Shown: in pieces, positions 1 to 25,604 of the stretch
Layout: every line of letters starts with the position of its first letter
How positions within the stretch are numbered: position 1 is the stretch's first letter
Assembly (NCBI GenBank): GCA_052168235.1
Contig: JBQLZK010000066.1
Span: 1-39,424 of the forward strand
Source: Thainema sp.
GTDB lineage: Bacteria; Cyanobacteriota; Cyanobacteriia; Phormidesmidales; Phormidesmidaceae
DNA length: 39,424 nucleotides
Reading direction: 5' to 3'
Notes under the pieces: model-generated
Databases searched by the model: none
What the model saw: only the letters and a program-made list of their open reading frames with translations
What the model was told of the DNA's origin: nothing
Position numbers and translations under genes: made by a program

Positions 1-63
1 TCAGGAGGGTCGGTCTACCTCTCTTCTCTCAACATACAAGGAGTGAGGCGTGAGGAGTAAAAG

Positions 64-108
64 GGCTGTAAAGGCTGTAGAGGCTGTAGAGGCTGTAGAG
101 GCTGTAGA
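64..108. repeat. Tandem 9-mer GGCTGTAGA x5 (first copy GGCTGTAAA)
   Basis: Directly visible in a purine-rich stretch downstream of the rep-like gene. Confidence 0.9.
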
Positions 109-324
109 GAAAGCTGAGGAGAGTAAGGGGAGAAAGAGGGGCAACGGGAGCAGGGGAGCAAAGAGTAGGGTGCTGTATAACCTCTTCGGAGATAGTCTAC
201 GCCAAAGCGAAGCGTAAACATATTGAGAAAATCATAGAGGCGGTAAGAGCGGCAAAGAAAATTGGGGAAACGGAAGATTTAGTAGGAATTGTTGCAACGT
301 AAAACATACGGTCAAACCTTGAAA

Positions 325-2478
325 TCATGGAGGAGAAAGGGTTCTGGGTTCTAGGGCAAAGTTGGGGGAAACGTTTCCCCAAGATTGAACAGGAAGCTGG
401 TGAATCAGCTCAATTAGCGCTTGAATGCGCTGGTCGAGGTTTTCAGATAATGCCTTGTCAGTAGGTGTAGTCAGAGGACTCAGTGGCAGCAGGCTGTGGA
501 GTTTGCTCAAAACAGACGTTGGCAGATTAGTTAGGTGCGAAAAGCAGGTTTCAAATTGCGATCGCACTATTCCTGTCAGGCGCAACATTCCTAACTGACA
601 CTGACGCAGAATGGACAACTCAATAGGCAATTCTGACGATTCGGGCGATTCAATAGCCGTAAGTTGCTCTATATATCGGCTAAAGTCATGATTCAAGTTA
701 TGACCAAAATTACAACCTTGAAACTGGCTAAATTGCAGCAGCGGAATAGCAGCTAAAGTCTTGTCCCGCTTGGGGTTACACCCTGACAACTGTAATAAGC
801 TTGTACAGTTTGTGTAGCGTAGGTCAAGCTGGGTTCTATCCTTTGCGCTCAGATTATTGCAGATATTAACAAGCCAATCAGGATTTGAGTCTTTGATCTC
901 ATTTAAATTCTTTAAAGTCTCTGCTCTATTTAAACTTTTTAGCGATCTCAAACTATCCAAATCCAGGTTCAGATTATCTAGATCCAAACTCAGATCATTC
1001 AGATCATTAAAACTCAAACTCAGACCATCTAGACTCCAAATCTCTAAATTCAAACCTTTATTCAGATCTATATTCAGATTTTCTAAATCTTGTGTTCTTG
1101 CAACCTTTACATCATCCAGACTTCTCAAGCTTTCTATAGCCAAATTCTGTTTCCAACATTCTTCTATATTTTGAGCAGCGTTTGGAACTTTAAATTCTTT
1201 AGGATGCCAAAGATCCAGATGACGATACAGAGAACTGCCACCAATTCCATAAACCTTAGTTAGTTTATTGAATCGTTCAGTTGCTCGATCTGGAAATTGA
1301 TCCAGCTTTTGCATTTCTAATACAGCGTTCTGGATCTTGTTGCGTGTTTGGTCAAACTGCTGTTGATTCCAGTCAGAGCGAGGCTTTGGAGTATTTTCTA
1401 AACCAAGCTTTGTGGTCACATCTTTGTAGTGTAATTCGTAGTGTAATCCATAGTGAAAGTAGTGACTCTTTTCCACAGAGCGTGCCCAGTCCGCCGCTCG
1501 TTGAGCGATTTCGTGCTGGTGTTGACACCACTCTTTGTAACCTGGTAGCGACTGAGCCACAGCGACGATTTGATTAACCAGGGCTGGTCCGGCCAACGGT
1601 TCGCCACCATGCAAAATGTGGTGAAAGATATAGGCTCGCATAGCGATTCGGCCCAGCAGTCGATTGGTTTGACCGTAACTCGACCAGCCCGCTTCAATTT
1701 CAGCATTGAGATCCTGGATAAACTTTTTTGCTCCGCCCGAAATTGGCTGAAACCCTTGCCACGTTTGCTTGAGATATCGGGTGAGCGTTTTTGTCTCAAG
1801 CGTATTTGCTTGTCTCGCACTGTGCCACTGTCTAACAAACGTATCTGAACTGCTCCAAATTGGCTGTAGATCAGCATTGAGCAGATAAGAGCCAATCTGA
1901 AGTGGTAAGCGATGAGCGTGATACAGCGTCGGCTTACCAGCCCGGTTGTAAGACTTGGGATTGGGAAATAGCTCTAACTGCCCTGGATAGAGCTTAAAGC
2001 CCGCTTGCTGGAGCATATGGGCCATGACGCGGGCAAGTTTCCAAGAGGGTAGTGCCTGGGTAAACGGGAAATACAAATGCAGTCCGCCGCTGTTACTGGA
2101 CGTGCAAATGACGGAACGCACCAGTCCTAGCGGCTCTAGCGCCACCATGATGCGTGAGACAGCAAAAGAGTCTCGCTGCGGGTGATAAGGGCTGGTGATA
2201 TCAATATCAAGCAGAGCATAGGACGTGGTGGAACCAAACCGAACGCCGTATAAGTATCCACCTTGCTGGATAATGCGGTCAGACAGAGGGTGACGGCTTT
2301 CAGTGTGCCAGTTTGGCTTGCATCCAGTCTCTGGAAAAGGGGCGTAGATATAGTCGTAGCGATGCGGAAATAACGCGAGAAACGGATTGTCTTGTTCTCG
2401 CACGTATTCAAATCGTTCCGCGATCGCACTTGCCGAAATATCGCACCTCCAAAGAGCAGCAGTTTGCGCCGCAAGCAT
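325..2478 (-). CDS. Putative plasmid replication protein: N-terminal AEP primase-polymerase-like domain, PriCT-like helical region, HTH-like segment, low-complexity tail
   Basis: 717-aa ORF. AEP-like motifs YALLDID (DxD), SNSGGLHLY, ELFPN and HRLPLQ. HTH-like ATERFNKLTKVYGIGGSSLYRH. Sits next to a large repeat-filled non-coding region. Function is inferred. Confidence 0.65.
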   Translation of the reverse strand: MLAAQTAALWRCDISASAIAERFEYVREQDNPFLALFPHRYDYIYAPFPETGCKPNWHTESRHPLSDRIIQQGGYLYGVRFGSTTSYALLDIDITSPYHPQRDSFAVSRIMVALEPLGLVRSVICTSSNSGGLHLYFPFTQALPSWKLARVMAHMLQQAGFKLYPGQLELFPNPKSYNRAGKPTLYHAHRLPLQIGSYLLNADLQPIWSSSDTFVRQWHSARQANTLETKTLTRYLKQTWQGFQPISGGAKKFIQDLNAEIEAGWSSYGQTNRLLGRIAMRAYIFHHILHGGEPLAGPALVNQIVAVAQSLPGYKEWCQHQHEIAQRAADWARSVEKSHYFHYGLHYELHYKDVTTKLGLENTPKPRSDWNQQQFDQTRNKIQNAVLEMQKLDQFPDRATERFNKLTKVYGIGGSSLYRHLDLWHPKEFKVPNAAQNIEECWKQNLAIESLRSLDDVKVARTQDLENLNIDLNKGLNLEIWSLDGLSLSFNDLNDLSLDLDNLNLDLDSLRSLKSLNRAETLKNLNEIKDSNPDWLVNICNNLSAKDRTQLDLRYTNCTSLLQLSGCNPKRDKTLAAIPLLQFSQFQGCNFGHNLNHDFSRYIEQLTAIESPESSELPIELSILRQCQLGMLRLTGIVRSQFETCFSHLTNLPTSVLSKLHSLLPLSPLTTPTDKALSENLDQRIQALIELIHQLPVQSWGNVSPNFALEPRTLSPP

Positions 2479-2588
2479 TGTCCCAGAAGGGATTTCAGCC
2501 CATTTGGAGAGAGATTTTTTATTTTAAACTTATTAGCTTGTCTCACTTGGCTCAATGCCAAGCCCAGCCAGCGTTTCAGATTTTAGTA

Positions 2589-4252
2589 GTGAGACAACAC
2601 GGAGACAAAGTGACACGATACAGAGCTATAGGTGATGTAATACAGAGTTATTTGTCTTATTCCAAAACCTTTGCCCTGCTTAAATTACAGCCGTTTTTAC
2701 CCGTGAACTTGAGATCAGACAAGACAGAGATTTACAGCAAAAGAGACGGGGTGGCAGAAGACAATCAATCATTCTGTTGAAGTAAAAGTAGCTGTAAGGC
2801 TTGCAGAACAAGCAATTTGGCAAATCTCCGAAGATTGAGACAAAAGTGAGCTGATGCGGAGATGCTTGTCTTTGTTGATGAGGTGATGTGAAGCGCGATC
2901 TCAGAACCAGCAAAAAGCTCGCAACTCATTTGGTAGCGATAATATTGCTTGATTACACTAACATTACACTACAAATAAAAGCAGTATTTTAAGCTGTTTA
3001 ACATTTCGGCTAAGTGGCAGCTAATCGTTATGTCCTAAGGCTTTTAGGCAACATAGCTACATAGATCTCACAACCTTAATAATGAATATTTCGAGATTCA
3101 GTGAGGTTAGATGACGCATTCAGTTGTGCTGCTTGAGTTAGACCGGATTCGATAAGGCATCACATCGTGAATTCTGGTTCAAATTTAGTGAGCCGATACG
3201 GAGATTTATGTCTTGTCTTAGAAAAGCAGTTGTCTTATCAGTTACTCGGTTGATATGGCTTGGCATCAGACCGCAAAGTGAGTGAATACGGAGCCGACTG
3301 TCTAATATGGCTTGGCAGTACTCAATTTGGCTTTAGCACTATTAGTGATGGGATGCGGATTACGTTGTCTCGTCTAAGTCTTACCGTGTACAAGCACAGG
3401 GCAAAGTAGCTAATTTTTCGCTGGATCAACGGCTTACAGGCGCTTTCAACCGTTGAGGATGAGACAACCTGAAGACGACGCTGCCGCCGATGTTCGCCGT
3501 TCCGCACTTGGATTGAGACAAGTGTTCAGTAAAACAAGTGAGCTGATACGGAGATTTTTGTCTGTTAACTGAGCGGCGCTCAAGTACCAAAAAGAGGACT
3601 GAAAACAGGCTCTATCAGCGCTTAATCAACCAGTGAGCCAATACGGAGATTTTTGTCTTGTCTTTAAAGTGAGACAAACTGAGACTTTTGATGTCGCCTC
3701 ATGTATAGCAGAGTCTGAATTTTTGGATTTGAAAGTGATGAGATACGGAAATATTAGTGATGCAATGCGGAGCATGTTGTCTGATGCACATTGATTTATA
3801 TCAGATTGTTAAGTAGATCAAGGTGGGCACGCATAGAGAGGACGAGTTAGAGATCAAGGGTTAAACATTGCTTGGCTCCAAAGATTAATACAAGAGCCAG
3901 AGAGAAAAGTGCGATCGCATCTATCAGATTCCAAAAGAAGAGTTCAAAGGATTTCGGCCTATAAAGCGCCACCTGCTGCGATTGAGACAAACCCCAAAGC
4001 GTGATCACAGTCTCAAAGGTGAGCTGATACGGAGTATGTTGTCTCATTTGTCTGATTCCTGGTTGAGACAGCTCTGGGTGGCAGGTTGTTCTGAATGTGT
4101 CAACTCCCTACAGGACAGTAAATTGCCGCGAGACTGAGACTGCTTTAATCGAATCGTGGTGCAAGAGTGATGCGATACGGAGTTTGCTCTAAATAGCTTG
4201 TCTCAGCTCTTAGTTGCAGAACTGTAGTAAATCGATACGGAGATATTGCTAG
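2589..4252 (+). repeat. Dispersed direct-repeat array (iteron-like), consensus GTGA-N3-RATRCGGAG-N5-TGTCT, 14 copies
   Basis: Copies start at 2589, 2610, 2632, 2846, 3188, 3278, 3345, 3538, 3633, 3735, 3757, 4019, 4167 and 4227, all in the same orientation. Nine retain the terminal TGTCT. Confidence 0.85.
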
Positions 4253-4402
4253 AGGTTGTCTCAGGAATGAGATATAAGGTTTGCTACAGATCAAGCCTTG
4301 AACCATAAGATTTTATTTTGGTTTGCATCAAAAATAATCACGATGCTAGTGATTACAGTTGATTCGTTTTGTGGTTAGATAATTTTTAATGTAAATCTTT
4401 TA

Positions 4403-4426
4403 ATTCATAGATTTAAGTCTATGAAT
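4403..4426. promoter_or_regulatory. CcmR/NdhR (LysR-type) operator ATAG-N8-CTAT upstream of bicA
   Basis: attcATAGatttaagtCTATgaat, core at 4407-4422. Matches the established NdhR/CcmR consensus, and bicA/mnh operons are known CcmR targets. Confidence 0.75.
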
Positions 4427-4560
4427 AAGCTTTCAATTTCTTCAGGCTAGTTTCGTGCAAGCCGTCTTTGCCGGAATTAGCGATCGCACAAGTTTGCACA
4501 GGTTTGTGGATTTGCTCTTTTGAAGACTTAGTCCAAATATATAGTTCGGTGGTCTAAGCC

Positions 4561-6264
4561 ATGCAACTTACCAATAGGATTCATTTTAGAAATTTGAGGG
4601 GTGACATCTTTGGGGGTGTCACTGCCGCAGTTATTGCCTTGCCGATGGCGCTTGCCTTCGGTGTTGCTTCAGGTGCCGGTGCCGTCGCTGGTCTCTGGGG
4701 TGCGGTTTTAGTCGGATTTTTTGCAGCATTGTTTGGTGGAACTCCCACCCTGATTTCAGAGCCAACTGGCCCGATGACGGTTGTAATGACTGCCGTTATC
4801 GCCAATCTAACAGCGGCTGATCCAGAAAACGGGATGGCGATGGCCTTTACCGTTGTGATGCTGGCTGGGGTTTTCCAGATTATTTTTGGAGCGCTGCGGC
4901 TGGGTAAATACGTCACGATGATGCCCTATACGGTGATTTCGGGCTTTATGTCCGGTATTGGCGTCATTCTGGTGATTTTGCAGCTAGCACCGTTCTTAGG
5001 ACAGGCTAGTCCGGCAGGGGGCGTTGTTGGGACGCTGCGTAGCATACCGGATTTGATTGCCAATATGCAGCCTGCCGAGACCGTGTTAGCGGTTGTGACG
5101 GTGGCGATTATCTGGTTTATGCCCTCGCGGTTTAAGAAGATTGTGCCGCCTCAGCTAGTTGCGCTGATCTTCGGTACGGTCTTGTCCTTGATGTTGTTCC
5201 CCGGTGTTGATATTCGTCGGATTGGCGAAATTCCGGCTGGCTTCCCCGCGTTGCAAGTGCCAACCTTCAGCCCTGATCAGCTACAGCTAATGCTTGTGGA
5301 TGCGGCTGTACTGGGGATGCTGGGCTGTATTGATGCACTGCTGACTTCTCTGGTGGCAGACAGCTTGACTCGGACTGAGCACGATTCCAATAAAGAGCTG
5401 ATTGGTCAAGGTTTAGGTAACTTAGCGTCTGGCTTATTTGGTGGTATCGCAGGCGCGGGTGCCACAATGGGTACGGTAGTTAACATCCAAACTGGCGGTC
5501 GGACGGCGCTTTCGGGTTTAACTCGTGCGGGTGTCCTGCTGGTTGTGATTCTGGGTGCAGCAAACCTAGCTGCCATGATTCCTCTAGCTGTACTGGCAGG
5601 TATTGCGCTCAAAGTTGGTATCGACATCATTGACTGGGGCTTTTTGAAGCGAGCGCATAAGGTTTCCGTTAAGGGCGCTCTGATTATGTACGGGGTGATT
5701 ATCCTGACGGTCTTGGTTGACCTGATTGCAGCAGTAGGGATTGGTGTCTTCGTTGCCAATATCCTGACGATTGAGCGGATGAGCAATCTGCATTCTGAGT
5801 CTGTGCAGGCGATTACGGATTCCGATGATGCCATTACGCTAAATGCTAACGAAAAGCGCTGGTTAGATGAAGCCGATGGTCGCGTTCTGCTGTTCCAACT
5901 CAGCGGTCCGATGATCTTTGGTGTGGCGAAGGCCATTTCGCGCGAGCACAATGCGGTTTCCTACTGTGACTCCATTGTGTTTGACGTAACCGATGTGCCT
6001 CACATGGGTGTGACGGCAGCGTTAGCGCTAGAAAATGCCATCCAAGAAGCAATTGAAAAAGGGCGTCAGGTGTTTGTCGTCGGTGCAACGGGTCAAACCC
6101 TGCGACGCCTTGAAAAGCTTGGTATTACCGAACTGGTTCCTGCACACCACTTCTATATCGATCGGGCAGAAGCACTCAAAATTGCAGTGACCTCTCTGTA
6201 TCAGCCTGCAGAATCCAACCTTTTAGAGGCTGGCGCACAAAGTGCGATCGCACCTGAACGGTAA
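4561..6264 (+). CDS. bicA: Na+-dependent bicarbonate transporter BicA (SulP family, C-terminal STAS domain)
   Basis: N-terminus MQLTNRIHFRNLRGDIFGGVTAAVIALPMALAFG, plus SEPTGPM, GAGATMGTVVN and STAS LSGPMIFG. Confidence 0.93.
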   Translation: MQLTNRIHFRNLRGDIFGGVTAAVIALPMALAFGVASGAGAVAGLWGAVLVGFFAALFGGTPTLISEPTGPMTVVMTAVIANLTAADPENGMAMAFTVVMLAGVFQIIFGALRLGKYVTMMPYTVISGFMSGIGVILVILQLAPFLGQASPAGGVVGTLRSIPDLIANMQPAETVLAVVTVAIIWFMPSRFKKIVPPQLVALIFGTVLSLMLFPGVDIRRIGEIPAGFPALQVPTFSPDQLQLMLVDAAVLGMLGCIDALLTSLVADSLTRTEHDSNKELIGQGLGNLASGLFGGIAGAGATMGTVVNIQTGGRTALSGLTRAGVLLVVILGAANLAAMIPLAVLAGIALKVGIDIIDWGFLKRAHKVSVKGALIMYGVIILTVLVDLIAAVGIGVFVANILTIERMSNLHSESVQAITDSDDAITLNANEKRWLDEADGRVLLFQLSGPMIFGVAKAISREHNAVSYCDSIVFDVTDVPHMGVTAALALENAIQEAIEKGRQVFVVGATGQTLRRLEKLGITELVPAHHFYIDRAEALKIAVTSLYQPAESNLLEAGAQSAIAPER

Positions 6265-6303
6265 TCGTTAACTCCAGCTTTCTCCCTTTCATAAAGAGAG
6301 AAA

Positions 6304-6402
6304 CTCTCACCCTAGCCCTAGCCCTCGGGGAGAGGGAACAAGAAAAGAAAGTAAAGGACTTCCGGCTCCCCTTTCCTGCGGGAGAGGGGCTGGGGGTGAG
6401 GG
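6304..6402. repeat. REP-like palindromic intergenic element (CTCACCC...GGGAGAGGG...GGGTGAGGG)
   Basis: Terminal inverted repeats and internal hairpins. A related copy lies at 12225-12308. Confidence 0.7.
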
Positions 6403-6435
6403 CAATCAAACGTTCTGTGTTTAAGACAAGCAATT

Positions 6436-7875
6436 ATGTTATCTAATCTTATTGCAAGTTTTCCGGTGAGCTGGGTTGATGTCTGGCCCTCAGCCCCGTT
6501 CCTCTTTGCTACAACGCCAGAATCTGAGTATGGTGCTTTTGTCCTGACGGGGGTGCTGCTGACCCTCGTGGTGATTTACATCATGAGCAAGCTAGGGGGC
6601 GAGCTGTCCAAGCGGCTAGATTTGCCGCCGGTGCTTGGCGAGCTAGTTGGTGGCGTCATCGTGGGTATCTCAGCCCTGCACCTGCTGGTGTTTCCCGAAA
6701 CGGGCGCAACGGCTGCTGATTCTATGCTGATGTCAGCGTTGCAGTGGCTCGGCAATCTGGATGCGGAAGCTGTCACTCATATCTTCCAAAGCCAGAGCGA
6801 GGTGATTTCGGTACTGGCGGAACTGGGCGTTATCGTTCTGCTCTTTGAAATTGGTCTAGAGTCTGACCTGCGGGAACTAGGCAAGGTTGGCTACCAAGCA
6901 GCGGTCGTGGCTGTGGTTGGTGTCGCGGCTCCCTTCATTCTCGGCACGGTTGGCTTAGTGATGCTGTTTCACGCCCCTGTGATTCCGTCGATCTTTGCGG
7001 GTGCAGCCCTCACGGCTACCAGTATTGGGATTACGTCAAAGGTTCTATCCGAACTGGGACATCTGAAATCCACGGAAGGCCAAATTATTGTCGGTGCAGC
7101 GGTTATTGATGACGTACTCGGCATTATCGTTCTGGCTGTTGTCGCTAGCTTGGCTAAGACGGGCGAAGTCGATCTGCTCAACGTTGTTTACCTGATTGTC
7201 AGTGCCAGTGCCTTCCTGTTGGGTGCCATCTTCTTAGGTAAGTTCTTCAACACCAGCTTTGTTGCGATCGCAGACAAACTGCAAACTCGTGGCGCATTGT
7301 TAATCCCAGCGTTCACGTTTGCGCTGGTGATGGCGTTCTTGGCGAATGTGATTCACTTAGAAGCAATCCTCGGTGCCTTTGCTGCGGGTTTGGTCTTGGA
7401 TGAAACCGACAAGCGCAAGGAACTGGATCAGCAGGTGATGCCAATTGCCGATATCCTGGTGCCCATTTTCTTCGTAACTGTCGGTGCGAAGGCTGACCTG
7501 AGCGTGTTGAATCCGGCTGTTGCTGAAAACCGCGCTGGCCTCATCATTGCCACCTTCTTAATCGCTGTAGCCATCATCGGTAAGGTGGTCACAGGTTGGG
7601 CGGTGTTCGGCAAGCCCGGTGTGAATCGCTTAGCGATTGGTGTTGGCATGATTCCACGAGGTGAAGTTGGCTTGGTGTTTGCCGGAATTGGTTCAGCCAG
7701 TGGCGTTCTAGATAAGCCCTTGGAAGCGGCCATCATCGTAATGGTAATTCTGACCACTTTCCTCGCACCGCCCATGTTGCAGTGGACATTGAAAGGCAGT
7801 CAGCCTGACGATGGCGAAGCGGTGACAGAAGAAGCCAAACCTGCCGCAGAACCAACCCTCTCGGTTACCAAGTAA
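6436..7875 (+). CDS. nhaS3: CPA2-family Na+/H+ antiporter (NhaS3/NapA-like)
   Basis: Motifs LLFEIGLESD, ATSIGIT, GAAVIDDVLG and GMIPRGEVG. Typical position between bicA and mrp. Confidence 0.85.
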   Translation: MLSNLIASFPVSWVDVWPSAPFLFATTPESEYGAFVLTGVLLTLVVIYIMSKLGGELSKRLDLPPVLGELVGGVIVGISALHLLVFPETGATAADSMLMSALQWLGNLDAEAVTHIFQSQSEVISVLAELGVIVLLFEIGLESDLRELGKVGYQAAVVAVVGVAAPFILGTVGLVMLFHAPVIPSIFAGAALTATSIGITSKVLSELGHLKSTEGQIIVGAAVIDDVLGIIVLAVVASLAKTGEVDLLNVVYLIVSASAFLLGAIFLGKFFNTSFVAIADKLQTRGALLIPAFTFALVMAFLANVIHLEAILGAFAAGLVLDETDKRKELDQQVMPIADILVPIFFVTVGAKADLSVLNPAVAENRAGLIIATFLIAVAIIGKVVTGWAVFGKPGVNRLAIGVGMIPRGEVGLVFAGIGSASGVLDKPLEAAIIVMVILTTFLAPPMLQWTLKGSQPDDGEAVTEEAKPAAEPTLSVTK

Positions 7876-7879
7876 TGTC

Positions 7880-8020
7880 GTAGGTTGGGTTGGGCAACGT
7901 GAAACCCAACAGTGTCAAGAGCTTGCCGGGTTTCGCTATCACTCAACCCAACCTACAGGATTACTCCAGATTAATTCGTTTTTACAGATGCGTCTTCACG
8001 GTGGGCAATGCCCACCCTAC
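7880..8020. repeat. GTAG-type REP/REPIN-like elements
   Basis: GTAGGTTGGGTTG (7880-7892) is inverted with CAACCCAACCTAC (7944-7956). A further GGTGGGCAATGCCCACCCTAC palindrome lies at 8000-8020. Confidence 0.7.
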
Positions 8021-8069
8021 GCTTTTATAAACCTTATATCTTGCTCCTCTCACCTGACTTAACTTAGCC

Positions 8070-8414
8070 ATGTCACTTTTAGAAGCATGTGTCTTTGCCA
8101 CCGTGATGTGTGGCTTTTTTGGCATCATCCTGAAAAAAAATTTGATGATGAAAATCATCTCGATGGACGTGATGAGCACCGGGGTGATTGCCTATTATGT
8201 CCTGTTTGCCGCCAAAGGAGGCTTATTTACGCCCATTCTTTCAGAGCGAACCACTGAATCGGTGGCATACGCTGATCCGGTGCCACAGGCTGTGATTTTG
8301 ACCTCAATCGTAATTGGCTTTTCGATTCAAGCGCTGATGCTAGTCGGTGTCATGAAGTTATCGAAAAATCACCCAACATTAGAAACGAGCGATATTGAAA
8401 AGCACGTTCAGTAA
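8070..8414 (+). CDS. mrpC: Mrp/Mnh antiporter subunit C
   Basis: 114 aa with ADPVPQAVILTSIVIG. Confidence 0.92.
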   Translation: MSLLEACVFATVMCGFFGIILKKNLMMKIISMDVMSTGVIAYYVLFAAKGGLFTPILSERTTESVAYADPVPQAVILTSIVIGFSIQALMLVGVMKLSKNHPTLETSDIEKHVQ

Positions 8415-8466
8415 AAAACAAGAGATTAATGCCGTTGGGACATTAGCGTAGCTATGCCCCGACTAT

Positions 8467-8556
8467 TACCAATCCTTTGCAAGACTGCACTGAACAAGGG
8501 GCTTAAACCCTTGCCCTATAAATGTTTATTCTGTTCATCCTCTATTTGGATTGGTA
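8467..8556. mobile_element. Small MITE-like element with TACCAATCC...GGATTGGTA terminal inverted repeats
   Basis: 9-bp terminal IRs and an internal CAAGGGGCTTAAACCCTTG hairpin. Lies in the enlarged mrpC-mrpD spacer. Confidence 0.5.
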
Positions 8557-8592
8557 TATGCCCAAAACATCATTGCGCATGACGATTAAGCC

Positions 8593-10050
8593 ATGAATAC
8601 GCTAACGATTGTCTGGATAGCACTGCCATTTTTCATTGGTTTCAGCATTTATCTGCTGCCCAAACTGGCGCGTTACTTAGCACTGGGAGTTGCTTTTGTC
8701 TCTTTGCTCTATGGGGTGCAGCGGCTGCTGGATCCAACAGTCTTGAATCTGCAACTGATTGACAACTTTGGAGTGACGCTGACCGTTGATTCGCTCAGTG
8801 GGTTCTTGATCCTGACCAATGGGTTAGTGACAGCAGCGGTGATTCTGTACTGCTGGCATCAGGGGAAAAGCAGCTTCTTCTATACCCAGATGATCATCCT
8901 GCATGGCAGCGTGAATTCAGCCTTTATTTGCGCAGATTTCATCAGCCTTTATGTGACCTTGGAATTAATCAGTATTGCAGCATTTTTGCTGATTACGTAT
9001 TCTCGGACTGATCGTTCTATCTGGGTGGGACTACGCTATCTGTTTGTTAGCAACACGGCGATGCTGTTCTACCTGATTGGAGCCGTATTGGTCTATCAGG
9101 CCAATCAGTCCTTTGCTTATGAAGGGTTGCGGACTGCGCCCAATGATGCGATCGCACTCATTGCTCTAGGTTTACTGACGAAAGGCGGCATTTTTGTCTC
9201 GGGTCTGTGGCTGCCGCTGACCCATTCTGAAGCGGATACTCCGGTGTCAGCGTTACTGTCAGGCGTGGTGATTAAAGCGGGTGTCTTTCCTCTGGTGCGC
9301 TGTGCGCTGCTGGTGGAAGAGATTGAACCAATTGTGCGGCTGTTTGGGGTCGGAACAGCGTTACTCGGCGTCAGCTATGCCATCTTTGAGAAAGATACGA
9401 AGCGGCTGTTGGCGTTTAGCACCTTGTCTCAGTTGGGGTTTGTGTTAGCAGCTCCCCAGGTGGGTGGTTTTTATGCTCTTACGCATGGACTGGTGAAATC
9501 GGCGCTGTTTCTGATTGCAGGCAACTTACCCAGTCGCAGCTTTAAGCAACTTCAGCAAGCGCCGATGGCGACACCCATTTGGTTGGTGCTGGTGATTGCT
9601 AGCTTCTCAATTTCTGGATTCCCTCTACTATCAGGGTTTGGGGCCAAAGTTTTGACGATGAAGAACCTGCTGCCGTGGCAGGTAGTAGTGATGAATATTG
9701 CCGCCTTGGGAACCGCGATCGCATTTGCCAAGTTTATCTTTTTGCCCCATCAGCCAGAATCCGAGGTTGATCCAGCGGCGGACTTGAAGCACAAACTTAA
9801 ACCTGGCTTTTGGCCCGCGATGTTTTTGCTGCTGGGTGGATTATTCGCTGCCAACGGAGTTTACTACGAAGCTTATTCGCTAGCAAACATTGTGAAGCCG
9901 TTGCTGACAATTGGTTTGGGCTGGCTAGCTTACGGCTTGATTTTCAGGCAATTGGTGTTCAGGCTGCCGCTCATCCTAGAAAAATTTGACCACTTAATTG
10001 GGGGAATGAGTCTGATGCTGATGTCGCTGTTTTGGATGGTGCTGGCCTGA
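8593..10050 (+). CDS. mrpD: Mrp antiporter subunit D, copy 1
   Basis: Antiporter-like membrane subunit with WLPLTHSEADTPVSALLSG and KDTKRLLAFST. 485 aa. Confidence 0.9.
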   Translation: MNTLTIVWIALPFFIGFSIYLLPKLARYLALGVAFVSLLYGVQRLLDPTVLNLQLIDNFGVTLTVDSLSGFLILTNGLVTAAVILYCWHQGKSSFFYTQMIILHGSVNSAFICADFISLYVTLELISIAAFLLITYSRTDRSIWVGLRYLFVSNTAMLFYLIGAVLVYQANQSFAYEGLRTAPNDAIALIALGLLTKGGIFVSGLWLPLTHSEADTPVSALLSGVVIKAGVFPLVRCALLVEEIEPIVRLFGVGTALLGVSYAIFEKDTKRLLAFSTLSQLGFVLAAPQVGGFYALTHGLVKSALFLIAGNLPSRSFKQLQQAPMATPIWLVLVIASFSISGFPLLSGFGAKVLTMKNLLPWQVVVMNIAALGTAIAFAKFIFLPHQPESEVDPAADLKHKLKPGFWPAMFLLLGGLFAANGVYYEAYSLANIVKPLLTIGLGWLAYGLIFRQLVFRLPLILEKFDHLIGGMSLMLMSLFWMVLA

Positions 10051-10065
10051 TTGGTTAGTTCAAGG

Positions 10066-10101
10066 TTGGAAACGAGTGAGATTGAGAAGCACGTTCAGTG
10101 A
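10066..10101 (+). pseudogene. Remnant of the mrpC 3' end (LETSEIEKHVQ*)
   Basis: 36 bp near-identical to 8379-8414 (LETSDIEKHVQ*). Confidence 0.8.
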
Positions 10102-10109
10102 TGGGTTTG

Positions 10110-11567
10110 ATGAGTACGCTAACGATTGTCTGGATAGCACTGCCATTTTTCATCGGGTTCAGCATTTATCTGCTGCCCAAACTGGCGCGTCACTTAGCGC
10201 TGGGAGTTGGCTTTATGTCAATTGCCTACGGGTTACAGCGGCTGCTGGATCCGACGGTCTTGAATCTACAGCTAATTGATAACTTTGGGGTGACGCTAAC
10301 CGTTGATTCGCTCAGTGGATTCTTTATCCTGACTAATGGGTTAGTGACAGCAGCGGTGATTCTGTACTGCTGGTATCGAGGGCAAAACAGCTTCTTCTAT
10401 ACCCAGATGATCATCCTGCATGGCAGCGTGAATTCGGCCTTCATCTGTGCGGATTTCATCAGCTTATACGTTGCCTTAGAACTGATGAGCATTGCCGCAT
10501 TTTTGCTGATTACATATCCTCGAACCGATCGTTCTATCTGGGTAGGACTGCGCTATCTGTTTGTTAGCAATACGGCCATGCTGTTCTACCTGATTGGAGC
10601 CGTATTGGTCTATCAAACTAATCATTCCTTTGCTTATGAAGGGTTGAAGACTGCCCCCACAGATGCGATCGCACTTATTATCTTGGCGTTACTCACCAAG
10701 GGCGGCATTTTTGTCTCCGGTTTGTGGCTACCGTTGACTCATTCTGAAGCGGATACTCCGGTATCGGCCTTGCTCTCAGGCGTGGTGATCAAAGCGGGTG
10801 TGTTTCCCCTGGTGCGCTGTGCGCTGCTGGTGGAAGAGATCGAGCCGATTGTGCGGCTATTTGGCGTCGGAACGGCACTGCTGGGAGTTGCCTATGCTGT
10901 CTTTGAGAAAGATACCAAGCGGATGTTGGCGTTTCATACGGTTTCGCAGTTGGGCTTTGTGATGGCGGCCCCGCAGGTAGGTGGTTTTTATGCGCTGACG
11001 CATGGATTAGTGAAATCAGCGCTGTTTCTGATCGCGGGCAACTTACCCAGCCGCAGCTTTAAGGAACTGAAGCAAACGCCAATTGCCACACCGATTTGGT
11101 TTGCCTTAATAATTGCCAGCTTCTCAATTTCTGGTTTCCCCCTACTGTCAGGTTTTGGTGCAAAAGTCTTAACGATGAAGAACCTGCTGCCGTGGCAGGT
11201 GGTGGTGATGAATATTGCCGCACTGGGAACAGCAATTTCATTTGCCAAGTTCATCTTTCTGCCCCATCAGTCAGAATCCGAGGCTGATCCAGATGCGGAA
11301 GCAAAGCACAGACTCAAACCGGGCTTTTGGCCAGCCATGATTTTGCTGTTAGGCGGACTGTTTGCTGCAAACGGGGTCTACTACGAAGCTTATTCATTAA
11401 CGAATGTGGTCAAACCCTTGCTGACAATTGCTTTGGGCTGGTTGGCGTATGGCTTCATCTTCCAGCGAGTGGTACTGAAGCTGCCCCGCGTCTTGGAGGA
11501 GTTTGAGCATTTGATTGGAGTGATGAGTCTGACGCTGATGTCGCTGTTTTGGATGGTGCTGGCATGA
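10110..11567 (+). CDS. mrpD: Mrp antiporter subunit D, copy 2
   Basis: Close paralog of 8593-10050. ATG at 10110 gives the same 1458-bp length. Confidence 0.9.
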   Translation: MSTLTIVWIALPFFIGFSIYLLPKLARHLALGVGFMSIAYGLQRLLDPTVLNLQLIDNFGVTLTVDSLSGFFILTNGLVTAAVILYCWYRGQNSFFYTQMIILHGSVNSAFICADFISLYVALELMSIAAFLLITYPRTDRSIWVGLRYLFVSNTAMLFYLIGAVLVYQTNHSFAYEGLKTAPTDAIALIILALLTKGGIFVSGLWLPLTHSEADTPVSALLSGVVIKAGVFPLVRCALLVEEIEPIVRLFGVGTALLGVAYAVFEKDTKRMLAFHTVSQLGFVMAAPQVGGFYALTHGLVKSALFLIAGNLPSRSFKELKQTPIATPIWFALIIASFSISGFPLLSGFGAKVLTMKNLLPWQVVVMNIAALGTAISFAKFIFLPHQSESEADPDAEAKHRLKPGFWPAMILLLGGLFAANGVYYEAYSLTNVVKPLLTIALGWLAYGFIFQRVVLKLPRVLEEFEHLIGVMSLTLMSLFWMVLA

Positions 11568-11950
11568 TTGGCTATTTAGATTTAATCCTACGATTGACAA
11601 TTTGGTTTTTGCTGACGGCTGATTTGAGCTTGACCAATATTCTGATCGGCGTGTGTATCGCCTTCTTGTTGCCGCGTCGTGTAACTGCTCCTGCCGTGCT
11701 GAAAGACTGGCTGCATGTGCTCTGGGAAATCATTGTGGCCATTCCCAAAGCCTATATTGAAGCAATTGAAATCATGGTGCGGCCCCATAAGTATGAAGAC
11801 ATCACCCTGGAGCGGGTGAAGCCCAATCGCACACCAGGACTAATTTTTCTCGATATTTTTCTGATTACATTTACGCCGAAAACCATTGTGTCGAAGTGCC
11901 ACGAAAACGGCTGGTATGAAGTCCATCGCGTCCGGAGGAAGAAACCATGA
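11564..11950 (+). CDS. mrpE: Mrp antiporter subunit E
   Basis: ITFTPKT motif. ATGA overlap with the mrpD stop places the start at 11564. Confidence 0.85.
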   Translation: MIGYLDLILRLTIWFLLTADLSLTNILIGVCIAFLLPRRVTAPAVLKDWLHVLWEIIVAIPKAYIEAIEIMVRPHKYEDITLERVKPNRTPGLIFLDIFLITFTPKTIVSKCHENGWYEVHRVRRKKP

Positions 11951-12222
11951 ACTGGGTAATGATTGCCATGATTCTCGCCTTACTGATTCCGATCTATGAG
12001 GCTTGGCAGGATGAAGACATTTGGCAAAAGATGCTGGCCTTTGCCAGTATTGCCACCAAAACGTCGGTTATGGTGCTGGTGGTGTCGGTGTTGCGCGGTG
12101 ACTGGATGATTGGGGTGGTAGGGGTGCTGATCCTCAGCGTTGGCAATGCGGCTCTGATGCTGCTGGCCCACATTCTCAGACGGATGAATGAAGCGGATGC
12201 AGATTTGCAGGTTTTGGAGTAG
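11947..12222 (+). CDS. mrpF: Mrp antiporter subunit F
   Basis: Small hydrophobic (about 3-TM) protein between mrpE and mrpG, with ATGA overlap. Confidence 0.75.
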   Translation: MNWVMIAMILALLIPIYEAWQDEDIWQKMLAFASIATKTSVMVLVVSVLRGDWMIGVVGVLILSVGNAALMLLAHILRRMNEADADLQVLE

Positions 12223-21951: not shown

Positions 21952-22269
21952 TCAATTTTCTCCATTGAGCAGGCTTTGAATATCCTGAGCACCATAAAGA
22001 ACTCTGACAATCTCAATGTTCTCTTTATCAATATGGTAGAAGATCAGGTGTCGTTTGAAGCCTTTAACATGCCATTTGCGTAGGTCTTTCAGACGCTCGT
22101 TTTCGCTAAGGTAGGGGCCATCAATGCCAGGCATACGAGCTAAATCAGCAAAGGTTTGTCGAGCCGCATCAAAAAACTCAAGTGCTTTGTCAAAATCGTT
22201 TTCTGCTAAGTAATCAAAGTGCTTCCGTAAATCTAGACGAGCTGGTGGCGAGACAACAATTTTTCTCAT
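21952..22269 (-). CDS. parE: ParE/RelE-family toxin
   Basis: ARLDL...Y.A...LR.W.V.GF.RHLIFY...IEIVRVLYG.QD. Confidence 0.85.
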   Translation of the reverse strand: MRKIVVSPPARLDLRKHFDYLAENDFDKALEFFDAARQTFADLARMPGIDGPYLSENERLKDLRKWHVKGFKRHLIFYHIDKENIEIVRVLYGAQDIQSLLNGEN

Positions 22270-22274
22270 CAGGT

Positions 22275-22538
22275 TTATTGCCCCTGATAGTGCTCAATCA
22301 GATCTTGCCGTTCTTGTTCCCACCAGTCGTCTGTTGCTTCAATGCCTTCTTGACGGTCTAAGCTATCAAGCCCTTTGATCAATAAGCCGTCTAGGGTTTC
22401 TTTGGCCTGTTTATGGTGCCGATCGCGCTGTACTAATGCCAGAAAGTATTCGCTAGCGGATGCATAACCTGCTTCTGCAATTTGTTCCTCAACATAGGCT
22501 TGCAAGTCGTCGGGTAGGGAAATGCTAATGTTGCTCAT
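22275..22538 (-). CDS. parD: ParD-like ribbon-helix-helix antitoxin
   Basis: ISISLPDDLQAYVEEQI..GYASASEY. Lies 5 bp upstream of the toxin. Confidence 0.85.
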   Translation of the reverse strand: MSNISISLPDDLQAYVEEQIAEAGYASASEYFLALVQRDRHHKQAKETLDGLLIKGLDSLDRQEGIEATDDWWEQERQDLIEHYQGQ

Positions 22539-22689: not shown

Positions 22690-23355
22690 TTAATTATGTC
22701 TGGAAGTGATTCCGCTAAAATGGGTTTCGAAGAATAACCAAATACCTAGAAGAATAGGTAATCCGGCAAGCACCTGAACGAAACTCAAGAGACCGCCAAC
22801 TATGTTGATACGATCTCGATAATGCCGCGTGTTGCCTGCTTCACCGTGTTTGAATGCCTCCATATCTGTTAACGCATCATCAAGGCTGAGCAACACCTTT
22901 TTCCCATCAACGACTTTCTCTAATTGAGACAAAGTATGAGCAGGATACAGGAGATATAGTCTATCTACATCGTCTAGCATGAGCTGATATGAAGATTCTC
23001 CTTCGGCTCTCACAACTCTATGCTGTTTAATTGGATTTAGGAGTTCAAGCGAATTCTCTTGCTTAAAGAGCCCATAAATCAGGGTTCTTTGTCGTTGGCA
23101 GCTGATACTAACCTGACGCTCGCACATTAAGCTGATCTGACCACTTGCTGTTATTAAATATAAACACCAGGCTAGCAAAGCTGCAGCTAGAAAACATCGG
23201 ATTGCCAGAAGCACAGGTGAGATAACGATATTTCTTTGCTGAAAAGGCTCAATGAGGAATAGTCCGCCTACCATCGAAATGGGGCACAGTAACAACAGAC
23301 CATAACTAGTATATTTTATTACCTTAAGTAGTAGATCAACAGGTAGAGGAAGCAT
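22690..23355 (-). CDS. Hypothetical membrane protein
   Basis: 221 aa with about 3 hydrophobic segments. No recognised family. Confidence 0.55.
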   Translation of the reverse strand: MLPLPVDLLLKVIKYTSYGLLLLCPISMVGGLFLIEPFQQRNIVISPVLLAIRCFLAAALLAWCLYLITASGQISLMCERQVSISCQRQRTLIYGLFKQENSLELLNPIKQHRVVRAEGESSYQLMLDDVDRLYLLYPAHTLSQLEKVVDGKKVLLSLDDALTDMEAFKHGEAGNTRHYRDRINIVGGLLSFVQVLAGLPILLGIWLFFETHFSGITSRHN

Positions 23356-23432: not shown

Positions 23433-25604
23433 TTACAAATGCAGCAATCGCCGTAACTTTTTATCCAACTCATCTGTAATTGCGCGATCGCCGCGTTCCA
23501 ATTTGCCTACATAATCCGCACTAATTCCCAGGAAACCGCCTAGCTCTTTGCGGCTCCAGCCGCGCTTTGTGCGACCTGCCCGCATTTGTTCTCCAGTCAG
23601 TGGATCAACGGGAGGTGCAGCCGGAATTTGCTTCGGACGCTTGGGTTCTTTGACTTTTGAAAGCAGTACTGGAATCGGATGAGGGGGGCGAATCGTGAGC
23701 TTCGCTCGGAGGATGCGCTCAATGATTTTTACCTTGCGCCAGTCCTTCGGCTTCTTCGCTTTGCTGCCCGGTTGTAGCCAATCCGGATAGGTTTCTGGAT
23801 CAAACTCAATGTGCCAGCCCAAGTCCATCAAAAGCTTGAGAGCCTTATTCCAGCGGTTTTTCAGGTCGCGAGCTTTGTACTTGTCGGTCAGCGCCTTGTC
23901 AATTTCGGCAGTGGCGATCACCTCTTCCAGCAGGCTTTTCACTTTGTAGTCATAGGGGTTCTGATTGCGTACCCGCACCCGCGAATCAAGCGTGAGCTGA
24001 ATTGCCAGCCGCAGCGCCATTTCGTTGTGATAGGGGTCAATTTGCAGGATATCGCGGGCTAGATAGCCAAACTGGTGCAGCGCTTCTCGGGCGCGGTTTC
24101 CAGCCCGGTTGAGGAAGTGCTTCGTCCAGAGGCCGGGGCTGACGGTGATATAGATCTCTTCCGGACGCTCAATTTTGCCTGTGACCCAGTCAATTTGGCC
24201 GTGGGGGTCAATCAGTACGTCCCACATGCGGCCAATCGGTGTGCTGGCATCAACCTTGCGTTTGCCGTGACCTTCGGCCCAGACGGATTTCACTAGCAGA
24301 CAGGACAGCGCATAGGCAGTGCTGGCGACGGAGTTGCGCTTTTCGGACAGGCTGGTGTTGTGGTTTCGCTCCCAGCCCAGCAGCTGAATAATGTCGCTGG
24401 CTTTGAGCGTAAACGTGCTTTTCCACGGCTCGTCTTCTTCCATTGTGCGGGCGGCAAAGATGAGCTGGAGCTTGACGGTGTCAAAACCGAACTTATCGAT
24501 GATTTGCTCGGCGGCTTCCCAGGGCAGCATGGCGATGTCGCCGGGGCTGGTGATGTAGTGCTCGATAAAGTTGGCTGGATTGGATTTGCTGCGATACTGA
24601 AAAACGGCTAGATCATCTTCGCTTTGCTGCCACAGGTCGGGACGGAGCTGAGCGCGGATGCTGCTGGCAATGGGGATGGCGGTGGGTAAGGGCGTGACCG
24701 GAGCCAGATCGAGGCTGGTGTCGGTAGGGGAGGGGGTGCGCTGCTTCAGCCCCAAAAGCCGCTCGATGTCTTGCACAGAGCAGTTGGGCAGGTTCAAACC
24801 TTCGATAATTCGCTGGGTGATGTCGTGGCAGTAGATTTGGCCGAAGAAGCTGATCTTGGTGTGTAGTTCCGATGGATCGGAGCTTTTCAAGTAGGAGTCG
24901 ATGGTTTGTCGCACTTCAGTGTGGGTAAAGTTTTGGATACCGTCGTTAGTGAGTTTGGTTTCGGCTTCTTCTAGTGCCCAGATGACCAGATTTGCACCAA
25001 TCGCACGGGCAAATTCTTCGCGAAAGTCCACATGACTGAAAAAGTCTGCTAGGCAGCTTTTCAGGTAGGCGCGGGTTTCTTCTTCGTCGAGGACAATTTC
25101 GAGCTGATTGGCTTTTTTGCGGCGACCTTTGGCCAGCTTGAAGTGGGGCAGGCTGATGTCGAGGGCTTCGAGCCCTTGGGTTTGAATCGTTTCTTCGATG
25201 CGCTGCTGGTAGGCTTCAAATAAAGCTTGGAAAAGCTGCAGGGTAATTAGATCCGGCAGCGAGGAGGCATCGCGCAGGATGACGGTGAGCTGATCGAGAA
25301 AGTCGGGGGTAAGGGTATCGTTGACCAATTGCGCCCGGTAGTAGCCTTTTTCGGAGGGATCAGAGGATTGGCTGGTTTGCGATCGCACATCCACATCCAC
25401 ATCCACATCTCCATTATCAGCATTTTGTTCGGGATTGAGCTGAATGGTGATTTTCCAACTGTCGGAGTCCCCGGTGTTAAGCGGAGGAGCAGACGGATTC
25501 GATTGGGAGAGGGAGTGGTTGGTTTTGGACATTGCCAGGTGGAATCGTGGGTCTGCGATGGTAACAGTGGGTGTCAGAAGGATGCCGTTAAGTCTGGTTG
25601 ACAC
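23433..25604 (-). CDS. Large DNA-binding protein: putative tandem winged-helix (initiator-like) core plus C-terminal Xre HTH
   Basis: C-terminal Xre HTH LTGEQMRAGRTKRGWSRKELGGFLGISADYVGKLERGDR. Core has FTLKASDIIQLLGW and YKVKSLLEEV...LKNRWNKALKLL. Start is GTG 25604 or ATG 25532. Confidence 0.7.
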   Translation of the reverse strand: MSTRLNGILLTPTVTIADPRFHLAMSKTNHSLSQSNPSAPPLNTGDSDSWKITIQLNPEQNADNGDVDVDVDVRSQTSQSSDPSEKGYYRAQLVNDTLTPDFLDQLTVILRDASSLPDLITLQLFQALFEAYQQRIEETIQTQGLEALDISLPHFKLAKGRRKKANQLEIVLDEEETRAYLKSCLADFFSHVDFREEFARAIGANLVIWALEEAETKLTNDGIQNFTHTEVRQTIDSYLKSSDPSELHTKISFFGQIYCHDITQRIIEGLNLPNCSVQDIERLLGLKQRTPSPTDTSLDLAPVTPLPTAIPIASSIRAQLRPDLWQQSEDDLAVFQYRSKSNPANFIEHYITSPGDIAMLPWEAAEQIIDKFGFDTVKLQLIFAARTMEEDEPWKSTFTLKASDIIQLLGWERNHNTSLSEKRNSVASTAYALSCLLVKSVWAEGHGKRKVDASTPIGRMWDVLIDPHGQIDWVTGKIERPEEIYITVSPGLWTKHFLNRAGNRAREALHQFGYLARDILQIDPYHNEMALRLAIQLTLDSRVRVRNQNPYDYKVKSLLEEVIATAEIDKALTDKYKARDLKNRWNKALKLLMDLGWHIEFDPETYPDWLQPGSKAKKPKDWRKVKIIERILRAKLTIRPPHPIPVLLSKVKEPKRPKQIPAAPPVDPLTGEQMRAGRTKRGWSRKELGGFLGISADYVGKLERGDRAITDELDKKLRRLLHL

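Follow-up and report, generated by a model that had tools for sequence, protein, structure and literature searches.

A field of composite direct repeats beside a primase-type replication gene in a cyanobacterial contig, and its association with a large helix-turn-helix protein

The window analysed here is the whole of a 39,424-nucleotide stretch from Thainema sp. (contig JBQLZK010000066.1 of assembly GCA_052168235.1). Near its left end lies a gene for a replication-like protein (Rep), whose modelled fold is that of the archaeo-eukaryotic primases (AEP), beside a field of 14 short direct repeats; further along there is a gene for a protein of 723 aa, called HTH-700 below, with a C-terminal helix-turn-helix (HTH) domain of the XRE type. 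Comparison with related loci, designated by L numbers where they have to be told apart, revealed that the type of repeat follows the HTH protein and not Rep. The features of the window that are discussed below are the following (ORF, open reading frame):

325..2478, minus strand: rep-like gene P0001, 717 aa (from the ORF list and its translation)
325..1188, minus strand: variable C-terminal tail of Rep, partly of low complexity, with LNLDL-type repeats and a GC content of about 0.30–0.32 at 900–1200
1189..1803, minus strand: all-helical conserved domain of Rep (residues 226–430), a fold without match, ending in ...GIGGSSLYRHLDLWHP, which is HTH-like in appearance
1804..2391, minus strand: AEP primase-polymerase domain of Rep (approximately residues 30–225), with conserved D91 and D93 (motif I), S127-S128...H134 (motif II) and E169
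2524..2547, plus strand: conserved box ACTnATTAGnTTGTCTCA between the rep start and the triplet, holding one copy of the second motif (from a four-locus alignment)
2589, 2610, 2632, 2846, 3188, 3278, 3345, 3538, 3633, 3735, 3757, 4019, 4167, 4227, plus strand: starts of the core copies
2589..2657, plus strand: tandem triplet (2589, 2610 and 2632, 21–22 bp apart), closed by TTGTCT at 2652
2658..2845, no strand: spacer from copy 3 to copy 4, of conserved length, with the inverted second motif AGACAA at 2717, 2759 and 2838
2846..2871, plus strand: repeat copy 4, a perfect match to the 26-nt pattern
2940..3100, no strand: mildly AT-rich stretch (by composition), containing a 28-nt island at 2952–2979
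3188..4261, plus strand: ten dispersed copies (the last ten of the starts given above, 3188 to 4227), each followed by TTGTCT(Y)A or by the next copy
22923..23003, plus strand: two decayed repeat-like units (at about 22930 and 22979), some 430–500 bp downstream of the HTH gene, weak, with 7 edits each
23433..25604, minus strand: HTH-700 gene, 723 aa, with a C-terminal XRE-type HTH (Pfam HTH_3/HTH_31 at residues 671–717), the proposed reader of the repeats
23436..23600, minus strand: HTH domain (residues 669–723), recognition helix ISADYVGKLERGDR

A preliminary description of this DNA had reported 14 same-strand copies of the core GTGA-N3-RATRCGGAG, and a mismatch scan of all 39,424 bases returned exactly this set: with at most one mismatch the core occurs 14 times, always on the plus strand, between 2589 and 4242, and not once in the remainder of the window. 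Relaxation to three mismatches increased the number of matches to 33, the other 19 having 2–3 mismatches and 18 of them lying outside the array. The full 26-nt pattern, which includes the block TGTCT, was matched 10 times with at most 3 mismatches (0.05 expected), a number reached by none of 100 shuffled sequences. Four copies fail this pattern, namely those at 2589, 2610 and 3735, where the next tandem copy directly abuts, and that at 4227, where TTGTCTCA is shifted to +29; the copy at 4167, with TTGTCTCA shifted to +31, matches only at the limit of 3 mismatches. From copy to copy the spacings are 21, 22, 214, 342, 90, 67, 193, 95, 102, 22, 262, 148 and 60 bp, the same values as given earlier (21–22 bp for adjacent copies, 60–342 bp otherwise). 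The tandem triplet and the pair 3735/3757 have the features by which classical iterons are recognised, i.e. tandem direct repeats of 17–22 bp by a rep gene. Each unit comprises three blocks, GTGA, GATACGGAG and TGTCT, which start at unit positions 1, 12 and 22 and are thus about one helical turn apart, so that the phasing proposed in the preliminary description holds within the unit; it does not hold between the copies, as arithmetic on the 13 spacings gave no common helical phase.

A second motif, TTGTCT(Y)A, follows most units and is also present alone and inverted. The gap between the rep-like gene and the SulP permease gene starting at 4561 (positions 2479–4560, 2082 bp) holds 14 copies of TTGTCT and 9 of AGACAA, i.e. 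6.7 and 4.3 per kb versus 0.48 and 0.21 per kb in the remaining window. No ORF longer than 77 aa lies wholly inside this gap, and a search of the gap, including the spacer between the triplet and copy 4, for a small ORF conserved in relatives gave none common to five loci. The Rfam search of positions 1–5000 reported only sR58 at 25 bits, under its threshold of 55 bits, and neither the array (distant mode) nor positions 1–12000 (near mode) matched any plasmid in blastn. From the ATG at 2478 to the first unit of the triplet the distance is 111 bp, in agreement with the earlier estimate of about 110 bp; the actual start of rep may be the GTG at 2403, because the syntenic locus L002 has a stop at codon 5 and the related ORF P0003 begins at the equivalent of residue 26. 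The sole sigma-70-like match in positions 2300–4700 overlaps unit 1 on the minus strand (-35 at 2608–2603, -10 at 2585–2580).

That homologous genes, too, would have arrays upstream was borne out in five loci beyond the window, four from Leptolyngbyales and one from Acaryochloris pREB1 (six loci counting the window). All five carry this motif, rep being encoded on the other strand, with the 21–22-bp triplet first, at about 110–190 bp from the rep start:

L002, contig CBKWJC010000036.1, syntenic with the window: Rep 93% identical to that of the window
L003, contig of a Pantanalinema metagenome-assembled genome: Rep 54% identical
L005, Leptolyngbya sp. NIES-3755 plasmid1: Rep about 59–60% identical
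L014, Kovacikia minuta pA: Rep 55% identical
L018, Acaryochloris marina pREB1: Rep about 31% identical

In five of the six same-motif loci, 54 copies with at most 2 mismatches yield the consensus aGTGA-N3-gATaCGGAg-N4-ttGTct. The triplet is found at the same place in L002, L003 and L018, and with a degenerate middle copy also in L005 and L014; a box analogous to that at 2524–2547 is present in L014 and, with a variant motif, in L. boryana plasmid1 (L007). From the start of copy 3 to the start of copy 4 we measured 214, 214, 225, 223 and 222 bp in the window, L002, L003, L005 and L014, respectively, and the later spacings recur in the same five loci as well (69 or 90 bp, 67–81 bp, a variable gap, and 84–97 bp). 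Judged by order and spacing, the layout of the array is positionally homologous among these five. The comparison of the window with L002 illustrates this conservation, as the two are 85% identical over 2401–2904, while over 2980–4273 only the repeat units can be aligned and yet the spacings 90/67, 95, 22 and 60 bp are retained. Nor is the motif scattered over plasmid DNA: in 303,671 bases scanned with at most one mismatch, its occurrences outside the arrays are one in about 100 kb of AP017309 and single ones in two unrelated loci. In pREB1 (L018, 3001–3428) a unit with its spacer has been amplified to five to six 78-bp tandem copies that are 98–99% identical, and by this near-identity the L018 array is recently expanded. 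The candidate ATTACAC/TGATTACA, considered as a shared Rep site, turned out to be lineage-specific only.

The AT-rich segment that had been placed at about 2940–3100 is present, but it is modest (GC 0.33–0.38 over 2901–3140 versus about 0.42 regionally), and the lowest GC content, 0.28–0.30, lies past the end of the array at 4281–4460. The island within it (2952–2979), in which ATTACACTA occurs twice at a distance of 11 bp, recurs with 100% identity in L002 amid an otherwise diverged spacer. L003, L005 and L014, with only 121–145 bp between copies 4 and 5, lack the stretch, and the island is missing from all same-motif loci other than the window and L002. Inside the arrays there is no conserved AT-rich unwinding element, the mild stretch being restricted to the window and L002. 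The GC skew of the IS-rich (insertion sequence-rich) AP017309, followed over 100 kb to place an origin, gave no clear switch at the module in the 150–200 kb profile.

The second gene of interest encodes the 723-aa HTH-700 protein, for which Pfam identified HTH_3 (4.7e-6) and HTH_31 (5.4e-6) at residues 671–717, and whose profile matches C.BclI (1.7e-7) and C.AhdI (1.3e-6). The gene immediately preceding the array in L005, L006 (NIES-3755 plasmid3) and L007 codes for a protein of 479–710 aa that has an HTH_3/HTH_31 domain at its C-terminus, and the window protein is 66% identical to the one encoded at this place in L005; homologues upstream of arrays occur also in L018, L019 (F. diplosiphon plasmid08) and L021 (NIES-3755 plasmid2). 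The usual order in these relatives is HTH gene, array, rep. In the window about 19 kb of cargo genes lies between the HTH gene and the other two components, so that the HTH protein would have to act in trans. Kovacikia pA has 2 good repeat copies just downstream of its HTH gene, the place where the window has its two decayed units. According to the tblastn lists, HTH-700 homologues are encoded on 48 plasmid records, at least 13 of which carry Rep as well; nine of these plasmids with both genes exhibit the order HTH gene, a gap of 0.35–1.1 kb, rep. F. diplosiphon plasmid08 (L019) has, at 277–528 and thus some 0.7 kb upstream of the module's HTH gene, a gene annotated as IHF beta subunit.

Repeat sets with tandem units of 21–24 bp are present in all eight HTH-bearing loci (the window, L005, L006, L007, L014/L020, L018, L019 and L021). 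A repeat family of at least 3 copies upstream of rep was found in none of the eight examined Rep plasmids without the HTH protein (L001, L004 and L008–L013, i.e. pSYSG, L. boryana plasmid3, Kovacikia pB, PCC 7367 pPSE7367.01, T. variabilis D, pCC7120gamma, Crocosphaera pC and pAQ3), their Rep-only status being defined as absence from the complete list of 48 HTH-700 plasmid records; weak two-copy tandem pairs are present in four of them (L008, L010, L011 and L013). Because these eight plasmids do without it, the array is not an obligatory origin for this Rep family.

The sequence of the repeats varies together with the HTH protein. The C-terminal 435 aa of the latter compare with those of the window protein as follows:

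Kovacikia pA, same motif: 77% identical
NIES-3755 plasmid1, same motif: 76% identical
A. marina pREB1, same motif: 68.5% identical
two further Acaryochloris plasmids, repeats not examined: 67–67.5% identical
L007, variant motif: 53.5% identical
L006, unrelated repeats: 27% identical

The recognition helix S(A/S)DY(V/I)GK(L/M)ERG, which is invariant in 26 close relatives of the window HTH-700, was found in all four same-motif loci with known gene and in none of the three loci with other repeats, whose helices read DQSLIAKIESS (L007), SQGLISMIENG (L006) and SQKFISLVERG (L019). L. boryana plasmid2 (L022) was considered as an independent replicate with another motif and rejected because of the excessive divergence of its HTH protein and the lack of a Rep homologue in the vicinity.

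No such relationship was found between the repeats and Rep, although the preliminary description had implied one. NIES-3755 plasmid3 (L006) has the same architecture with other repeats, TCTAGARYAATTGGGG being present five times at 22–24 bp along with TGTAATCA; L. boryana plasmid1 (L007) has, again in the same architecture, TGGGAGAATWYGGAG three times at 21–22 bp along with TGTCATAA; and L021 has a triplet with another sequence at the same place. The Reps of L005 and L006, two plasmids of the same cell, have 79% identity over 536 aa while their repeats are unrelated, and the window Rep is 58.6% identical to that of L006; conversely, the Reps of the window and pREB1 are only about 31% identical and have the same motif. 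Alignment of the Reps from same-motif and other-motif loci revealed only 8 distinguishing columns, scattered, of which 4 are in the conserved part, and on this account a set of specificity-determining Rep residues was rejected. The Rep tails were rejected as determinants of repeat specificity as well, since they do not follow the repeat type: those of L005 and L006 are 57% identical despite the unrelated repeats, and that of the window is unrelated to the tails of L003 and L005, which carry the same repeats. A common core RATWSGGRG across the three repeat types was unsupported by counts.

These results bear directly on an interpretation along the lines of the preliminary description, a classical iteron replicon, in which the AEP Rep itself would bind the repeats, the triplet would be an autorepression operator and part of the origin, the dispersed copies would titrate or handcuff Rep (as in the model provided by incA of P1), and the HTH protein would be a mere neighbouring regulator. 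The array abuts rep, the distance between triplet and rep start is constant across the six same-motif loci, and in the split modules of the window and Kovacikia pA most of the array remains beside rep, all of which would be expected of iterons. The helical domain of Rep is conserved, too, and ends in an HTH-like segment (in the model, three short helices at residues 370–419 with the sequence GIGGSSLYRH), and the Atlas neighbours include 'Replication protein' clusters with HTH_23 in 35% of the members, which is a lead only. Nonetheless, Reps that are 79% identical stand beside unrelated repeats and Reps of 31–60% identity share them, neither the few scattered columns nor the C-terminal tails of Rep go with the repeat type, and the eight Rep plasmids without the HTH protein showed no array. 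Because the repeat type co-varies with a separate XRE-HTH protein and not with Rep, iterons bound by Rep with Rep autorepression are the less likely interpretation, and we consider a replicon of this kind unlikely.

The Rep protein itself could be assigned to a fold with confidence. The AlphaFold2 model of residues 1–440 (mean predicted local distance difference test score, pLDDT, of 88.3) was compared with the PDB using Foldseek, and all 11 matches at E<=1e-3 are AEP enzymes, with CAPP Prim-Pol as the best one (E 7.9e-9, TM-score on target 0.62–0.66), further matches being RepB' of RSF1010 (3h20, E 5.8e-6; 3h25, 2.1e-3), the cyanophage S-2L PrimPol, LigD PolDom and the pRN1 prim-pol. At the level of the modelled structure the AEP primase-polymerase fold of this ORF, as had been claimed, is therefore established, and primase/polymerase activity is predicted. 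In an alignment of 62 family members D93, S127, S128, G132, H134, E169, P172, R190 and P192 are invariant and D91 is present in at least 90%. The family profile matches LigD PolDom at the SGGLHLY motif (E 0.003), placing it opposite SKGLHLY of LigD and RGYHIW of CAPP, and by sequence alignment only, the invariant E169 in GQLExFPN is aligned with the VEIFPKQ stretch of CAPP and is a candidate metal ligand of motif III. The relationship is poorly visible to standard searches: P0001 has no Pfam match and no direct sequence match in the PDB, NCBIfam PrimPol_Msp scores E 0.052 and 12 bits (cut-off 200), which is below the model threshold, and the Pfam Prim-Pol family PF09250 matches 6 of the 62 relatives (best 2.7e-8). 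The PriCT and HTH domains that had also been proposed for Rep could not be shown, as Pfam detected neither PriCT_1 nor PriCT_2 in P0001 or the 62 relatives, an HTH has no support from Pfam or Foldseek, and for the helical domain modelled alone (residues 226–440, pLDDT 88.6) none of the 178 listed PDB structures reached E<=1e-3, the best value being 2.4.

Conservation across the Rep homologues is limited to the first ~440 residues, and the low-GC part of the tail (window 900–1200, residues ~430–530) is specific to the close clade P0002–P0005 of the window. The family is common: tblastn located it on 74 cyanobacterial plasmid records, including pSYSG (Synechocystis 6803), pAQ3 (PCC 7002), pCC7120 beta and gamma and small plasmids, 1405 of 8000 scored candidates are homologues at E<=1e-3, and among clusters at 50% identity 846 match at E<=1e-3; homologues are found also on Mb-sized contigs. 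It is a large cyanobacterial plasmid family without a Pfam model, annotated mostly as hypothetical, with the homologue on T. variabilis plasmid D annotated as 'replication-related protein'. A role in replication is suggested by the 13-kb L. boryana plasmid3, which contains nothing besides this Rep gene, ParA/ParB, IS genes and one small ORF. In pSYSG (L001, NC_005231, 4001–4918) the stretch homologous to Rep begins some 350 bp ahead of the annotated coding sequence; the match spans only query residues 33–344, and the record has a second matching place, so that a split or decayed copy may be present. As to plasmids that lack the HTH protein, the gene following Rep encodes a DEAD/DEAH helicase in pAQ3 (L013, 5031–6446) and a protein with a DnaG-type primase core in T. 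variabilis plasmid D (L010, 5312–7807), both of which are possible alternative partners.

Combining these observations, we propose that the array is the cis-acting part of a three-part module, composed of an AEP Rep, a composite repeat field and an HTH specifier, that controls rep expression and replication, a proposal to which we give about an even chance. The repeats are most likely read by the XRE-type HTH domain of the ~700-aa protein, as predicted from the association and co-variation of their sequences. How the protein binds, represses and controls copy number, and where the origin lies, we infer along the following lines. By binding the triplet and the box, which overlie the rep promoter region, the HTH protein would set rep expression; it would also occupy the dispersed sites, holding or pairing plasmid copies by titration or handcuffing, and this occupancy would couple plasmid concentration to initiation. 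Rep would make the primer and initiate theta replication near the rep gene, where it would either be brought in by the bound HTH protein or use a separate site, and the specificity that separates co-resident plasmids would reside in the HTH-plus-repeat pair and not in Rep. Control of rep expression and of replication frequency is favoured over an obligatory origin because triplet and box have a fixed position relative to the rep start and because Rep works without the cassette in many plasmids.

Several points weigh against this proposal. Its support is computational throughout, with binding, replication and expression as its deduced steps, and the co-variation is based on 7 loci and confounded with the phylogeny of the HTH protein, of which 600 of the 700 residues have no recognisable fold, domain or function. 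XRE-type HTH proteins usually bind inverted repeats as dimers; here the units repeat in direct orientation, and any dyad within them (TGAG...CTCA) is weak. The position of the array is fixed relative to rep, and in the window and Kovacikia pA it stays with rep and not with the HTH gene, as the classical Rep-iteron model would predict as well. The promoter-like match over unit 1 is weak (1 found, where shuffled sequences give 3.9) and is not conserved in L003. Finally, the 39-kb contig is only a candidate plasmid.

Many same-strand repeats spread over 0.3–2 kb are reminiscent of plasmid centromeres such as sopC and parC, which suggests a different function for the same components: the array would be a partition site and the HTH protein a centromere-binding adaptor that clusters and positions large low-copy plasmids together with a ParA-type ATPase encoded elsewhere. 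In accordance with this idea, par genes adjoin the HTH gene in L018 (ParB), L006 (ParA/ParB) and L021 (ParA/ParB), and the eight examined module replicons are large (47 kb to 1.2 Mb, five of them above 90 kb). However, ParB normally has its own parS, and the plasmids of L006, L018 and L021 already encode ParB; in AP017309 ParA/ParB are about 6–10 kb away, and the 39 kb of the window contain no par gene. The L007 set is reduced to the triplet and a few copies of the second motif, and the locking of the triplet and the box to the rep start points to control of rep. We regard a centromere, which the preliminary description had named as its alternative, as improbable.

In NIES-3755 plasmid2 (L021, 4093–9881) an HTH-700 homologue and a 21-bp triplet precede a different primase-type Rep of 1261 aa, which contains PriCT_2 and whose C-terminal half is related to CyRepX1 at E 2e-19. 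This cluster links the experimentally validated CyRepX family to the HTH-plus-repeat arrangement. It is also compatible with a two-protein initiator, in which the HTH protein would be the true origin binder, opening the DNA or recruiting a helicase, the AEP Rep would be only the primase, and the array would be the vegetative origin, oriV. Such a division of labour would explain the association and co-variation of repeats and HTH protein no less than the three-part module does, HTH-700 is far larger than a plain repressor, and the fold of Rep matches RepB' of RSF1010 (the E 5.8e-6 match above). Many plasmids, some of 13–16 kb, nevertheless have Rep without the HTH protein or the array, so that Rep evidently can work alone; the arrays contain no conserved AT-rich unwinding element; and no helicase gene is present in the window (no helicase domain among the 30 ORFs scanned). 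In our judgement there is little probability that the HTH protein is the initiator proper.

The control module favoured above can be extended into a bolder proposal, which we put forward as tentative and consider doubtful in the present state of evidence, though less so than the three alternatives just weighed. The ~700-aa HTH protein could be a new kind of replicon 'specifier', which reads a composite repeat field and is combinable with unrelated primase-type Reps (AEP-only here, PriCT_2/CyRepX-like on NIES-3755 plasmid2); an exchangeable HTH-plus-repeat cassette would then set incompatibility and copy control in many large cyanobacterial plasmids, with the primase as a generic engine. If so, the 79%-identical Reps of the two co-resident plasmids would be compatible only through their differing cassettes. 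An HTH-plus-repeat pair that sets specificity would provide a handle on incompatibility and copy number in Leptolyngbya, Acaryochloris and relatives, orthogonal replicon cassettes for engineering, and a natural case of origin-proximal repeats read by a protein other than Rep.

Among the known systems, IncQ (RSF1010) offers a close parallel, with RepC as the iteron-binding initiator, RepB' as an AEP-fold primase and RepA as the helicase; since it pairs an iteron binder with an AEP-fold primase, the premise of the preliminary description that primase-type replicons use no iterons is not general. The window resembles IncQ in having an AEP-fold primase gene beside short direct repeats, with a separate proposed reader and with RepB' among the best structural matches. 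It differs in that no RepC or RepA homologue was found, the proposed reader is a 700-aa XRE-HTH protein, the ~3.5 tandem 20-bp iterons of IncQ are replaced by 14 composite units over 1.7 kb, and many relatives of the window Rep have no reader protein at all. In P1 (incC/incA), F, RK2 and R6K, winged-helix initiators bind their own iterons. The tandem units of ~21–22 bp at the rep promoter, the additional same-strand copies at irregular distances and the likely roles of the array (autoregulation, titration, handcuffing) are reminiscent of these plasmids, unlike the Rep, which combines AEP with a helical domain instead of WH1-WH2 winged helices, the units, which are composites of three blocks and ~30 bp long, and the independence of the repeat type from Rep. 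A general account of iteron plasmids with extra control arrays is given in the accessible part of PMC4980987. Also comparable, as far as the accessible text of PMC7848731 goes, is the antitoxin PrpA, which binds plasmid iterons and sets the copy number: there as in our proposal an HTH protein other than Rep would occupy replication repeats and control copy number, but PrpA, unlike HTH-700, is the small antitoxin of a toxin-antitoxin pair and competes with a classical Rep.

As regards the replication proteins, the window Rep shares the catalytic fold and the acidic and histidine motifs with pRN1 ORF904, CAPP and the S-2L PrimPol, and is distinguished from the AEP/Prim-Pol replication proteins by the lack of a fused helicase or PriCT and by the helical domain 226–430, which has no relative in the PDB. 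Like CyRepA1/A2 and CyRepX1/X2, as these are presented in the accessible parts of PMC10079941 and PMC10899382, it is a plasmid-borne cyanobacterial Rep outside the classical incompatibility (Inc) typing, found on many plasmids and some chromosomes. It is not a CyRepA, which the accessible text of PMC10079941 defines by DUF3854 and DEXDc, as it lacks any Pfam match and hence these two; and its identification as a CyRepX (Slr6031/Slr6090) was rejected on the basis of BLASTP (E 0.93) against the 1121-aa ORF at pSYSX 27957–31322, which was taken as CyRepX1. In the accessible part of PMC10899382, information on cyanobacterial Rep proteins is called limited, and the Reps of the large Synechocystis plasmids except pSYSA are described as previously unknown and then identified on pSYSX only; the family of the window Rep matches pSYSG, whose Rep is counted there as unknown.

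Iteron-type control and AEP primases on plasmids are thus already known, whereas the unnamed Rep family and its large HTH partner are new, as is an extended composite array that varies in type with this partner instead of with Rep. A literature search, with subscription journals mostly outside its range and supplements excluded, found nothing on this Rep family, the HTH protein or such arrays in cyanobacteria. Little is understood of how large plasmids of cyanobacteria replicate, and vectors can draw on few native replicons.

The remaining genes of the window encode transporters, sugar catabolism enzymes, a ParE toxin and ATPases, and neither housekeeping genes nor tRNA genes were found in it. 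The end of the contig (60–110 and 1–200) is rich in purines and has, just past the stop codon of rep, the short tandem repeat GGCTGTAGA in about 4–5 copies. The ParE-family toxin gene (21952–22269, minus strand, Pfam E 7.5e-15) lies about 1.2 kb from the HTH gene; the small ORF at about 22270–22540, just upstream of it, is the probable antitoxin gene, and such a pair is typical plasmid-stability cargo. At 34294–36607 (plus strand) an AAA_21/AAA_15 ATPase of 504 aa is followed by a 261-aa ORF without Pfam match, and the two may constitute a defence-type pair.

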